This document shows positions 15,812 through 23,775 of a DNA stretch of 64,000 nucleotides, piece by piece. This DNA is from Gammaproteobacteria bacterium (lineage in GTDB: Bacteria; Pseudomonadota; Gammaproteobacteria; SZUA-229): the NCBI GenBank assembly GCA_016744065.1, contig JADGFA010000004.1, forward strand, positions 64,559 to 128,558. The letters run 5' to 3'. Under the pieces are notes generated by a model. The model was not told where the DNA came from. It did not search any database and saw only the letters and a list, made by a program, of their open reading frames with translations. The translations under genes were made by a program, and so were the position numbers. Position 1 is the first letter of the stretch. Each line of letters opens with the position of its first letter.

Positions 15812-16333
15812 ATGATTTATAAATTACTGTTTACATGTTTACTAATAGCGACTGGAAGTATCCACGCAAAAGGCACTTATCAACAGCCCGATGCATTTAT
15901 AGCCGAAGCGTTTACCCAGCAACCAAAACCACAGGTCATCTGGATAAAAGATGATTTACGTCATCAAATTGAACAAATTTTACAACATAAATATAAAGCC
16001 AGGCGCATTCGTTACTGGCAACAAAAAAAACGCAGCGTCTGGATATTAGAAGAAATTGGTAAAAAGAAGCCCATCACCGTGGGGGTTATTATTGATGCAA
16101 ACAAAATATCCCATTTAAAAGTACTGGTTTTCAGAGAAACCCGAGGCTGGGAGGTTCGATACCCTTTTTTTACTAAACAATTTAATCAACTATCACTTGA
16201 AGCGGATCATACTTTAAGTGAGTCAATTGATGGCATATCCGGTGCAACGCTTTCTGTACGTGCCCTGGATAAAATGGCCCGTATTGCCTTACTATTAAAT
16301 AATTATATTCAACAACAAGCTCATACAATATGA
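15812..16333 (+). CDS. Extracytoplasmic FMN-binding domain protein (ApbE-type flavinylation motif)
   Basis: 173 aa. Signal peptide MIYKLLFTCLLIATGSIHA. FMN_bind signature SIDGISGATLSVRA, matching the Dxx(S/T)GA(T/S) flavinylation motif. Confidence 0.65.
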   Translation: MIYKLLFTCLLIATGSIHAKGTYQQPDAFIAEAFTQQPKPQVIWIKDDLRHQIEQILQHKYKARRIRYWQQKKRSVWILEEIGKKKPITVGVIIDANKISHLKVLVFRETRGWEVRYPFFTKQFNQLSLEADHTLSESIDGISGATLSVRALDKMARIALLLNNYIQQQAHTI

Positions 16334-17097
16334 GCAGACGAAAAAAAGCTTTTCCATTTTTTTTATGGCATAGACGTATTGGCCTGGCTGCACTTATACT
16401 CGTTTGCATTCTGTCTATTACCGGAATTATGCTTAATCATACAGAAGAGCTAAAACTGGATGAAACAACAATTGAATCCAGCTTCATTCTAAACTGGTAT
16501 AACATTAATCCTCTAGGCACGCCTGTAAATTACAACTTGAATGACACCTGGATTAGTCAGTGGAACCAACAACTGTTTTTTAATGGAAAAAGTTTAACTA
16601 CACATAAAGAAAAATTGAAGGGAGCTATACAGATTAATGACATTATTGCAGTTGCACTGGAAAATGTTATTTTACTGCTTGATAATGAAGGTGAATTAAT
16701 TGAAATCATGTCCGCAGGCACTGATTTTCCCATTAAAAAAATAGGCTTCTTAAACAAAAAAATAAGTTTACTTGATTCACAAAATAATATTTATATTTCA
16801 GATACAAATTTTACCGCCTGGCATAAACACAAACAGTCGCCTTTAAACTGGGCGACACCCGAAAACCTGTCCGATAAAAAAATAACAACACTGCAACAGG
16901 CATTTCGTGGGCAAGGCTTAAACCTTGAAAAAGTTATTTTAGACTTACATTCAGGGCGAATCTTTAACTCAAAGTGGGGCATTTACATAATGGATGCCAG
17001 CGCTGTTTTAATGATATTACTGGGCTTTAGCGGTTTATGGGTCTGGTGGTCACGCAAACTCAAAATAAACAAAAAACATTCTAAAAAAAATTTTTAA
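16330..17097 (+). CDS. PepSY-associated TM helix protein
   Basis: 255 aa. Start overlaps the stop of the FMN-binding gene by 4 nt. N-terminal WHRRIGLAALILVCILSITGIMLNH (the PepSY_TM motif with conserved His) and C-terminal TM segment LHSGRIF...MDASAVLMILLGFSGLWVWW. Confidence 0.65.
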   Translation: MSRRKKAFPFFLWHRRIGLAALILVCILSITGIMLNHTEELKLDETTIESSFILNWYNINPLGTPVNYNLNDTWISQWNQQLFFNGKSLTTHKEKLKGAIQINDIIAVALENVILLLDNEGELIEIMSAGTDFPIKKIGFLNKKISLLDSQNNIYISDTNFTAWHKHKQSPLNWATPENLSDKKITTLQQAFRGQGLNLEKVILDLHSGRIFNSKWGIYIMDASAVLMILLGFSGLWVWWSRKLKINKKHSKKNF

Positions 17098-20909: not shown

Positions 20910-22121
20910 TTAACCAGGTCGACCATCAACCCGTGCTGTAACCAGCATGGGTGCATAAAAATAAAAATAACAGGCAAATGCCAGCACCCAGAGGCCACCA
21001 GCAATAGCTGTACTCCACTGCACAAGCTCAGGTAACCAGGCAGGAATAATAACTCGTACAACTGCGGCTAAAAAAATAAAAATATAGGCAACGCTTATTA
21101 AGCGGGGAGGATTAAGCTGACGCCCAGTATGACCCAGTGTAACTCTCGAAATCATAGAAAGTATCATGCCACCAATAGCACCTACAGTAATACTGTGTAA
21201 AGCGGCACTAATATTAGCCATTACGCCCATACTGTATAGTGCTAATAAACCAAAACCCAGCGGTATAAAACTATACGCTATATGTAACGACCATAATAAA
21301 GGCTCTGATTTACAGTACTGCCCACCCCAGCGGGAAGAGCGCCAGGCATTTGCCAGTGCCGCTATAAAGGAAACACTAAATAATAATATTGACGGTACAT
21401 TATCAAACCCCAAAAAAGCAATAATCAACAATAAAATAATGCTTAAAATGCTAATAATTTCCAGGTATTTAACAGGTGGTTTTTTAATACAACGTGTTGT
21501 ATTGGCGGTGAATGCAGGTATAACACGACCACCTAAGATAGTGATGATTAAAGAGAAAAGAATAATCGCGCCATGTAATGCCTGCGTTGCTATGTGATGC
21601 TGATTATAAATCACAGCCCAGTGGCTACTGGCATTCAATAAACTTAAAACAAATAAAATAGGCACAAACATCAGATTACGCCACTGTTTCACTTTTATTA
21701 CCGGATAAGCCATCGCAATAGCAGCAAACAATAAAAACATAACATCACCTGCTGCAATTAACTCAACAGGAACATTGTAAGAAAAACCAAAAGCTAAAAA
21801 AAATCGCCCTGATAACCACATTAAAACCAGTACCGCTAGCGGTTTACCTCTTATACCCATAACACCCGTCCATGACTGAACGGCCGTTAACAAAAAACCA
21901 ACAACAATAGCGGAGCCAAAACCAAACAACATTTCATGCCCATGCCACCAGACAGGCCCACCATAAGGTAGCCAGGTAGAAGCGCTAATCCAGAAATAAA
22001 CCCACCAGGCTATAGCCAGAATAGAAAACAGAGTTCCCCCTAAAAACAATGGCCGAAAAGCCAGACGAAATAAAGGAGGAATAGCTAATGCTATACGGCT
22101 GTCATCTATATTAAGAGGCAT
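20910..22121 (-). CDS. nnrS: NnrS family protein (heme-copper membrane protein of the NO-stress response)
   Basis: 403 aa polytopic membrane protein. N-terminal LFRLAFRPLFLGGTLFSILAIAWW...WWHGHEMLFGF block with conserved His residues typical of NnrS. Confidence 0.8.
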   Translation of the reverse strand: MPLNIDDSRIALAIPPLFRLAFRPLFLGGTLFSILAIAWWVYFWISASTWLPYGGPVWWHGHEMLFGFGSAIVVGFLLTAVQSWTGVMGIRGKPLAVLVLMWLSGRFFLAFGFSYNVPVELIAAGDVMFLLFAAIAMAYPVIKVKQWRNLMFVPILFVLSLLNASSHWAVIYNQHHIATQALHGAIILFSLIITILGGRVIPAFTANTTRCIKKPPVKYLEIISILSIILLLIIAFLGFDNVPSILLFSVSFIAALANAWRSSRWGGQYCKSEPLLWSLHIAYSFIPLGFGLLALYSMGVMANISAALHSITVGAIGGMILSMISRVTLGHTGRQLNPPRLISVAYIFIFLAAVVRVIIPAWLPELVQWSTAIAGGLWVLAFACYFYFYAPMLVTARVDGRPG

Positions 22122-22554
22122 GGGGGTGAGGTATCCAGAGAAAAATATAATTTTATCTGGTAATTTTTTAGCTGGACAGGATAAAAGTCAAAAATAACCT
22201 TTTACTATTAAAACCTTTATTGAAGACTTTCACCACAATAAGGATATCCCCTGCGCTTTTGAAGGTGCTTATTTAAGGCAACAAGCAGTCCATTTTCAGT
22301 TATATTTCCACCTCCATCGCTGTCAATTTCTTCACAACATAATGATGATAAATACTTTTTCACCTCTTTTCACTTTTATTCGACTTTTTGTATGCTTTAT
22401 AAAATAATAATACTCCCCTCTGTTTAGAAATGTTTTTTTGCCTGTATCATGTATGAGAAAACACTCGCTTGCTGCTGATACTATGAACAGAACAGGCGAA
22501 TATAAAAATAACGACGATAACGAGGGATTGTGATATAGACTCATGCTATCTCCA

Positions 22555-23775
22555 TTATTTAATTGATTTTAAGTATTTTTCCAGAGTAGTTAATTGATCA
22601 CCGGACAAGTCGAGCCGCCGATGTGAGCGAATACTTCCATCACGAAGCAGTCCAGAAATTTTTTCTGCTTCTATTTCAAATTCAGATGCATTACTCGAGT
22701 GGCAATAGACACAATTATCTTCATATAGCTTACGCCCCTCCTCTATTGCCTTTCCAGGCGTCTCATTAAGAGGCTGAAAAGACGTTTCAAGATTATCCAG
22801 GCTTTGATAAAAGCTACCTTTATCCCAAAAATCAGGCTCTGAGCAACCTAAGCAGGGATGTCCTGCTTCAACAGGGAAACTGGTGCCCTTATTCCATTTA
22901 TGCACTGCACAGGCATTATGAGTTACCGGGCCTTTACATCCCAACTTATACAGACACCAGCCTTTACGCGCCCCTTCATCATCAAAACTTTCTGCAAACT
23001 TCTCATCCTGATAAAAATGATAGCGGGGGCAACGTTCATGCACCGTGTTAGCATAAAAATTGACCGGCCGCTTCTGATCATCCAGTTCGGGAAATCGGTC
23101 AAAAACAAGGTAATGAGCCAACACACCACTGATGGCAACGGGAAGCGGTGGGCAACCGGGAATATTAATCAGCATTTTTTTTGATATAAGGCCTCTTTCC
23201 ATGAGCTGCCCAACACTTTTTGCTCCCGTTGGATCAGGTTTCGCCGCGGGTAACCCTCCATAAGCGGCGCAGCTTCCTATTGCCATCACCGCTGCGGCAC
23301 CAGCACTGCACTCCTGTAATATATCCAGGTTAGTCCTACCCGCAATAGTTGAATAAACACCACCCTCTGCAACTGGAACTGAACCATCAACAATCAACAG
23401 GTATTGCCCATAGAATTTCTTCATTACATCTAATCGGGCCATTTCTGCTGCTTCACCTGAAGCAGCCTGCAAAGTATGGTGATAATCAAGTGAGATATAA
23501 TCAAACATCAAATCTTCGATGCCTGGTGTGTGTGAACGGGTAAGCGACTCAGTACAGCCCGTACACTCCTGAAATGAAAGCCAGATAACAGAAGGTCGAG
23601 TTGCATGGCGCAATTTTTCAGACAACACAGGAATGACACTGACAGGCAGGGCTAATAAAGAAGCCATTACCGAACAGTATTTCAGAAATGACCGTCGGCT
23701 TACTCCCTTTTGAGACAGGTAAGCTTCAAAAGTAATTGCTTTAGATTTTTTTTCTACCAATATAAACCACAACAA
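22555..23775 (-). CDS. [NiFe]-hydrogenase small-subunit homolog (Tat signal, three Fe-S cluster motifs) with extra C-terminal cytochrome c-like CxxCH domain; no large-subunit gene nearby
   Basis: Tat leader [23 protein letters not shown] aligns to E. coli HyaA ([23 protein letters not shown]). Proximal-cluster motifs [16 protein letters not shown] and PGCPP. NiFe_hyd_SSU_C-like medial and distal cluster ligands CPRYHF...[17 protein letters not shown]...[13 protein letters not shown]. C-terminal extension [13 protein letters not shown]...[17 protein letters not shown] resembles a class I cytochrome c. Confidence 0.8.
   Translation of the reverse strand: [406 protein letters not shown]

Follow-up and report, generated by a model that had tools for sequence, protein, structure and literature searches.

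The 64-kb stretch of gammaproteobacterial DNA analysed here (contig JADGFA010000004.1; hereafter the window, on which all coordinates and strands are given) encodes a hydrogenase small subunit (SSU) that is predicted to end in a cytochrome c domain in place of a membrane anchor, and no gene for a large subunit (LSU) was found within it. To our knowledge, SSU and LSU are encoded together in every characterised [NiFe]-hydrogenase. The SSU is regarded as an obligate partner of the LSU, both for stability and for 'hitch-hiking' export by twin-arginine translocation (Tat). We found that the window gene belongs to a distinct, large and apparently undescribed paralogue family of Isp-type (group 1e-like) SSUs, here called tail-type, which breaks the SSU-LSU gene-order rule and appears to bring its own haem output domain. 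These proteins may be alternative SSUs that pair in trans with an LSU encoded elsewhere and pass electrons to periplasmic cytochromes, a reading that we favour while putting it at slightly less than an even chance. The gene and its parts are as follows, "canonical" denoting SSUs without the tail:

22555..23775, (-) strand: whole open reading frame (ORF) of 406 residues, SSU with predicted cytochrome c fusion, stop codon at 22555-22557; from Pfam and NCBIfam matches
23605..23775, (-) strand: Tat signal peptide, residues 1-57, with SRRSFLKY at residues 26-33; from TIGR01409 and the mature start of 3myr
22801..23604, (-) strand: SSU core, residues 58-325, an N-terminal flavodoxin-like domain and a C-terminal domain; from PF01058, PF14720, 3myr_A and the invariant ligand columns
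23002..23043, (-) strand: clade-specific stretch around the distal-cluster ligands, residues 245-258; VHERCSRYHFY in tail-type proteins against IHDRCYRRPFYDxG in canonical ones
22750..22800, (-) strand: variable linker, residues 326-342 (17 residues); from low per-column conservation and gaps in 123 sequences and low confidence in the full-length structural model
22558..22749, (-) strand: predicted monohaem class-I cytochrome c domain, residues 343-406 (64 residues); from the tail profile, the tail model, Foldseek and conservation

The sequence-only reading of this DNA had recognised a Tat leader, the SSU motifs and a full set of cluster ligands, and profile searches bear this out. The ORF product is identical (100%) to database protein P0001. 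It scored above the cut-offs of the Tat signal model TIGR01409 (20.1 bits, cut-off 16.7), of Oxidored_q6 (PF01058) over residues 71-221 (95.6 bits, cut-off 27) and of NiFe_hyd_SSU_C (PF14720) over residues 241-322 (106.9 bits, cut-off 27), and TIGR00391 (hydA, 'hydrogenase small subunit') places it in the group-1 SSU family with 390.7 bits against a cut-off of 179.5. Its top match in the PDB is the Isp-type HydS of Allochromatium vinosum (3myr_A), with 410 bits over residues 58-325, about 100 bits above any other hydrogenase. All 11 Fe-S ligands are present, invariant across the family and aligned with those of 3myr. By the standard of known group-1 enzymes, we take C71, C74, C169 and C208 of the N-terminal domain to bind the proximal cluster and, in the C-terminal domain, H246, C249, C274 and C280 to bind the distal and C289, C308 and C311 the medial cluster. 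Pro307 stands just before C308, as is found for 3Fe-type medial clusters. Judged from these positions, the ligand sets of a group-1 [NiFe]-hydrogenase SSU are complete: four Cys for a proximal [4Fe-4S], three Cys for a medial [3Fe-4S], and one His and three Cys for a distal [4Fe-4S] cluster.

The long hydrogenase-type signal peptide is retained, and its Tat residues R27 and R28 are invariant across the family. Since the alignment with 3myr covers residues 58-325, with the mature HydS chain starting opposite residue 58, the signal peptide was assigned to residues 1-57 and the mature start placed near A58. Inspection of the upstream DNA left the start codon ambiguous among three TTGs (23775, 23772 or 23760); the choice leaves the mature protein unaffected because only the cleaved signal peptide changes. 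In the full-length AlphaFold model, the predicted local distance difference test score (pLDDT) falls below 50 at residues 267-337, in the cluster-binding C-terminal domain, and the model does not show where the haem domain sits with respect to the distal cluster.

A cytochrome c module in place of the anchor had also been proposed, and this part of the protein was analysed by profile and by structure. On the single window sequence, two Pfam cytochrome c models gave only sub-threshold matches over residues 343-367 (Cytochrom_C / Cytochrome_CBB3; 18.3 vs 21.3 and 17.6 vs 27), but a profile of 32 tails matched solved class-I cytochrome c domains (those of CcoP, E = 2e-9, and QcrC) along the N-terminal helix, which holds CxxCH, as well as along the C-terminal helix. 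Precomputed matches to PF13442 or PF00034 are on record for a few relatives. Modelled alone with AlphaFold (AF2), the tail formed three helices with a pLDDT of 93.5, and Foldseek aligned this model with the SorB cytochrome and, at a probability of 0.98 and TM-scores of 0.63-0.68, with the monohaem domains of Geobacter PgcA, which are 64 residues long. We are confident that the modelled tail represents a class-I cytochrome c fold. It is hydrophilic and has no C-terminal hydrophobic anchor helix; the canonical relatives P0117 and P0118 have an Ala/Gly/Val-rich anchor. An ordinary anchor with a chance CxxCH can be dismissed, since the tail is conserved, is predicted to adopt a cytochrome fold and carries the motif in 115 of the best 120 database relatives.

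The CxxCH motif lies at residues 355-359 (nucleotides 22699-22713), and G347, C355, C358, H359 and H385 are 100% conserved among 123 distinct family sequences. The sequence-only reading had rightly remarked on the missing Met sixth ligand, as no Met column of the tail is conserved in these 123 sequences; it had overlooked the invariant His385 (nucleotides 22621-22623), a candidate sixth ligand situated where the Met normally sits, about 7 residues ahead of the C-terminal helix (392-405). Because H385 occupies the usual position of the Met, haem ligation is probably His/His. The preceding linker varies in both sequence and length in the family alignment, and a flexible linker ahead of the domain is also what tethered class-I cytochrome c enzymes have. 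CcoP (of the cbb3 oxidase) and QcrC resemble the tail in profile, and PgcA and SorB in fold. All four use the Sec pathway and most of them have His/Met ligation. We know of none that is fused to a hydrogenase SSU.

The absence of LSU and maturation genes, first noted for the surroundings of the gene, holds for the whole window. The LSU motifs RxCGxC and DPCxxC occur in no frame of the 64 kb, tblastn with three LSUs gave no match there, and neither did queries with HypA, HypB, HypC, HypD, HypF, the HycI protease, HupH, Isp1, Isp2 and HynL. By Pfam, the 30 ORFs between 2 and 38 kb are housekeeping genes, and neither the Isp-type operon order nor linkage to a PF00374 LSU was seen in the window. 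Across the family, we compared 23 tail-type with 75 canonical loci among the matches listed, the genome collection yielding mostly canonical ones and a metagenome scan with an 11-sequence tail alignment yielding 17 loci. In 22 of the 23 tail-type loci, LSU was absent within up to 10 kb (tblastn over 355 kb), whereas the canonical loci had an ORF of ~580 residues with both LSU motifs 2-2.4 kb downstream wherever the flank sufficed. Pfam confirmed the order hynS-isp1-isp2-hynL, with genes for a cytochrome b-like Isp1 and an HdrD-like Isp2 separating those of the subunits, in two of the latter (L083 and L110).

The sole exception among the tail-type loci is L092, in which the 3' half of a 1e-type hynL directly precedes the tail-type gene. 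Its order (1-2807) is hynL 3' half, a 71-residue membrane protein, the tail-type SSU and an EF-hand gene, and the contig ends inside hynL. This fragment shares 80% identity with a Thiothrix LSU and contains the motif DPCIACAVH; the scan for both motifs in one ORF is blind to such a partial LSU at a contig edge, and it was recovered by tblastn. A search with the L092 fragment returned metagenomic LSU fragments only, and none could be traced to the organism of the window or to the symbiont of Galathealinum, which carries the nearest relative. Hydrogenase genes have been described in hosts of the family: the core genome of Thiothrix is reported to include hyaABC and hypABCDEF (PMC8570282), and the symbiont of Solemya velum to have hupSL and hox2 (PMC4287430).

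Irregular LSU genes were observed in related contigs. In L110 (9107-10849), hynL of an otherwise complete hyp/hyn cluster contains an in-frame TAG (…KDWGSRG*GLGNF…), and gene calling splits it into two halves, one of 280 and one of 282 residues. In L109 (2318-3781), an LSU lacking its first ~120 residues and containing an in-frame stop lies directly after panC, with no SSU. Moreover, 21 of the best 120 LSU matches are ORFs of 275-286 residues, and both that were examined begin at the same conserved Met. Together, these irregular genes may point to frequent decay of this LSU lineage, or may be gene-calling artefacts.

The tail-type family comprises more than 120 distinct sequences from sulfur- and iron-oxidising Proteobacteria, including animal symbionts. 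Gamma-, beta- and alphaproteobacteria are represented, with members in Gammaproteobacteria (Thiothrix nivea, Sedimenticola, the Solemya and Galathealinum symbionts, Chromatiales), Hydrogenophilales and Hyphomicrobiales. The nearest relative of the window protein is that of the endosymbiont of Galathealinum brachiosum (79% identity; L002). In a neighbour-joining tree of the SSU domain, all tail-type sequences (L046 included) formed one clade, sister to the canonical Isp-type set. Sequence comparison identifies group 1e SSUs as the closest relatives, on the basis of PDB score and identity, the tree covering tail-type and canonical Isp-type sequences only. Identity between the SSU domain and genuine Isp-type SSUs ranges from 61 to 73%, and the mean pairwise identity of the domain is 0.70 within the tail-type set, 0.75 within the canonical set and 0.65 between the two.

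To compare constraint, we took the columns in which 71 canonical SSUs reach at least 95% conservation and scored them as kept when the same residue occurred in at least 80% of 109 tail-type proteins. This showed that 108 of 123 such columns (88%) are kept. Nine of the 15 lost columns fall at residues 240-258, next to the distal cluster, and four in the N-terminal domain (58-239); outside residues 245-258, no column carries a fixed clade-specific residue. Site-wise entropies of the two sets correlated with an overall Spearman coefficient of 0.79 (N-terminal domain, 0.82; C-terminal domain, 0.67), compared with 0.91 for random halves of the canonical set. These sequence patterns indicate that the LSU-facing N-terminal domain is under unchanged constraint and that the electron-exit region at the distal cluster is remodelled. 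The family thus shares with the Isp-type SSUs HydS/HynS of A. vinosum (3myr) and Thiocapsa roseopersicina the Tat signal, the Fe-S ligands and 88% of the highly conserved columns. Those SSUs are encoded in hynS-isp1-isp2-hynL operons and carry a hydrophobic anchor of ~60 residues; the family differs in its cytochrome c domain, its altered distal-cluster surroundings, the lack of adjacent LSU/Isp genes and an EF-hand partner.

At NCBI and JGI, the family proteins are annotated just as 'hydrogenase small subunit', and no model in Pfam or NCBIfam sets them apart. A cytochrome c-fused or orphan SSU was not described in the full-text literature searched, a coverage that leaves out most subscription journals, so that a prior mention is possible. 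Two proteins, P0104 (L111, 5501-6493) and P0102, have the tail-type signature at the distal cluster and no cytochrome c domain. The C-terminus of P0104 is rich in Arg (…YRQLRMRRGRRLRRSDQ), and its gene is not followed by an EF-hand gene.

In the trans-pairing reading, the three Fe-S clusters would be inserted in the cytoplasm, and the tail-type SSU would dock on a matured [NiFe] LSU from a hydrogenase operon elsewhere in the genome. It would then carry this LSU through Tat, its hydrophilic apocytochrome tail passing as an unfolded extension, and in the periplasm the cytochrome c maturation (Ccm) system would load the tail with haem. This would yield a soluble uptake hydrogenase of the periplasm, in which electrons might run from the proximal, medial and distal clusters to the tethered haem and on to soluble periplasmic acceptors, bypassing the usual Isp1/Isp2 route into the membrane. 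Possible acceptors are c-type cytochromes, high-potential iron-sulfur protein (HiPIP) or SHP/DHC/cytochrome b561. That an LSU is bound, that haem is attached, which way the electrons run and what accepts them are all inferred. The homologous SSU of Desulfovibrio HynAB (1h2a_S, 314 bits) offers a functional analogy: this enzyme is soluble and periplasmic and passes electrons from its distal cluster to cytochrome c3. It differs in using a separate tetrahaem cytochrome and in having its subunits co-encoded, where the family has a fused monohaem domain and an LSU that is not co-encoded.

The sequence-only reading had called a Tat-routed protein with a Ccm-type haem motif mechanistically odd. The point is a fair one, and a natural precedent for a Tat-exported c-type cytochrome was not found in the literature searched. 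The conflict is real, but it need not be fatal. Published Tat work suggests that a hydrophilic apocytochrome of 64 residues could follow the folded Fe-S domain in unfolded form and be loaded with haem later, so the two pathways would not contradict each other.

We consider trans pairing at least as likely as independence from any LSU because 108 of the 123 columns are kept, the N-terminal domain shows no burst of change, the L092 gene stands beside hynL, and two named hosts have hydrogenases and hyp genes elsewhere. Retention of the hydrogenase-type Tat signal and confinement of the replacements to the exit region are further support. Several points weigh on the other side. LSU is missing from 22 of 23 tail-type loci and present in all canonical loci with enough flank, and functionally obligate partners usually cluster. 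The regular neighbour is instead an EF-hand gene, found directly after the tail-type gene in 15 of the 23 loci and in 0 of the 75 canonical ones. Mean site entropy is somewhat higher in the tail-type than in the canonical set (0.93 vs 0.72 bits), the host operons already supply an SSU of their own, and that the N-terminal domain faces the LSU is our assumption from published hydrogenase structures, not a calculation on coordinates.

A free-standing periplasmic Fe-S/haem wire is the alternative that we take most seriously, although we regard it as rather unlikely. Here the protein would be an SSU without any LSU-type partner, Tat-exported and haem-loaded later, which would use its three clusters and the tethered haem to relay electrons among redox proteins of the periplasm or the membrane in sulfur-oxidising bacteria, perhaps in concert with the EF-hand protein; SHP/DHC/cytochrome b561, flavocytochrome c and NnrS are conceivable partners. 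This would explain why the gene is monocistronic or paired with the EF-hand gene only, in diverse neighbourhoods of three proteobacterial classes with a near-total absence of hydrogenase-gene linkage, as in the window itself, where LSU, Isp and Hyp genes were not found. A dedicated non-hydrogenase partner, the relative with decayed LSU genes (L109) and the recurrence of periplasmic redox genes nearby (cytochrome b561 in L088 and L089 and, together with SHP and DHC, in L003 and L111; in T. nivea, cytochrome c and a flavocytochrome c) point the same way. However, the LSU-facing N-terminal domain shows neither relaxation nor compensating replacements, and every known member of the SSU superfamily, including NuoB and FrhG, works with an LSU homologue. 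We favour trans pairing over such a wire because much of the N-terminal domain is buried in the interface, whose loss should be visible in the sequence, and no such trace was seen; the position of the L092 gene next to hynL also speaks against the wire. The sequence-only reading had proposed a stand-alone electron-transfer protein repurposed from the hydrogenase scaffold. Its architecture and its lack of an LSU gene hold, whereas its independence is less certain in the light of the N-terminal constraint and L092.

It is improbable, in our view, that the protein is no bulk electron carrier at all, acting rather as a periplasmic sensor of redox state, O2 or nitric oxide (NO) that reports, with or without the EF-hand partner, to a PepSY/OmpR-type/PhoQ-like two-component system. 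Genes for PepSY, a response regulator and a histidine kinase do adjoin the family gene in L003, L101 and L111, a regulator and a kinase lie within 5 kb in L103 and L077, and SHP, NnrS and hemerythrin, all NO/O2-binding or -responsive, are among the neighbours. Yet this association is limited to about 5 of the 23 loci and absent from the window, a three-cluster relay plus haem exceeds what a sensor needs, and no precedent is known. The least probable account by far is that the gene is the decaying remnant of a lost hydrogenase operon or the product of a chimeric assembly. Decay would fit the frameshifted EF-hand gene of the window and the LSU pseudogenes in the related contigs L109 and L110, but the ORF is intact, its 11 cluster ligands, CxxCH and H385 do not vary among 123 distinct sequences, and the monophyletic clade is as conserved as canonical SSUs; this conservation rules out a pseudogene. 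The concern raised earlier that the window might be chimeric was not borne out. The same gene order (Lnb-like, SSU, EF-hand, NnrS) recurs in the independent genome of the Galathealinum symbiont (L002), with proteins 78-94% identical, and the same sequence is present in a second assembly; a chimera is excluded also because the missing LSU neighbour is family-wide.

If trans pairing holds, electron-output subunits of hydrogenases would be interchangeable, and electrons from H2 oxidation could be diverted to periplasmic cytochrome c instead of the quinone pool. If the protein works alone, the SSU scaffold has been recruited to a new role, and as a wire it would be the first member of the SSU/NuoB superfamily to function without an LSU/NuoD homologue. 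Under either reading, metagenomic surveys that take SSU matches as evidence of H2 metabolism count tail-type genes too. The family is also a natural test case for a Tat substrate bearing a putative Ccm-matured c-type haem domain, and its cultured hosts Thiothrix nivea and Sedimenticola thiotaurini make this question directly testable.

Around the SSU gene, the window contains these further features:

22217..22544, (-) strand: frameshifted remnant of a gene for a periplasmic two-EF-hand protein; ORFs of 70 and 48 residues, with a 1-nucleotide shift at an A-run near 22340
20910..22121, (-) strand: nnrS, downstream on the same strand, context only; PF05940, 361.9 bits, same order in L002
23980-26022, (-) strand: upstream neighbour of 680 residues with Lnb_N, DUF7843, DUF7842 and DUF7840; from Pfam
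15812-17097, (+) strand: FMN_bind and PepSY_TM genes side by side, ~5 kb from the SSU gene; putative small periplasmic/membrane redox pair

The EF-hand partner is a secreted protein of 110-130 residues with two canonical EF-hand loops and an Arg/His-rich C-terminus, and it scores above Pfam thresholds (EF-hand_7, 43 bits). In the window remnant, both Ca-binding loops are degenerate (DTGKKTFLNRGE and DSDGGGNITENG); an intact orthologue is present in L002 (11206-11595). The frameshift is either a real pseudogene or a homopolymer sequencing error and, if the former, the EF-hand protein is dispensable at least there.

As for the flanks named in the sequence-only reading, nnrS was confirmed, and the supposed outer-membrane-protein-like gene turned out to encode an Lnb_N/DUF7840/DUF7843 protein, not a classical outer-membrane protein; its match to the model of the lipoprotein N-acyltransferase Lnb is weak (23.9 bits, cut-off 550). 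Adjacency of nnrS to the tail-type SSU recurs in the Galathealinum symbiont (L002, 11702-12913), and three unrelated loci (L043, L076 and L110) have nnrS next to a canonical hynS-isp-hynL operon, which suggests a recurrent link of NnrS to Isp-type hydrogenase components. The other tail-type neighbourhoods are mutually unrelated.

Homologues of all three members of the SHP-DHC-cytochrome b561 operon of Rhodobacter sphaeroides adjoin the family gene in L003 (7538-11533) and L111 (1444-5281), where genes for PepSY, a PhoQ-like kinase and a regulator of the OmpR type accompany the operon; L101 (9601-11927) has these three without the operon. The DUF1924 protein is a homologue of Rhodobacter SHP (1dw0; E = 6e-21). 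This operon link is confined to a minority of loci and absent from the window, and its products are candidate acceptors. In T. nivea (L001, 11477-13777), genes for a small cytochrome c and a flavocytochrome c flavoprotein lie downstream of the family member. The flavoprotein gene is seemingly truncated (236 residues) by an inserted DDE transposase, and an intact cytochrome c/FCSD pair follows 4 kb further on.

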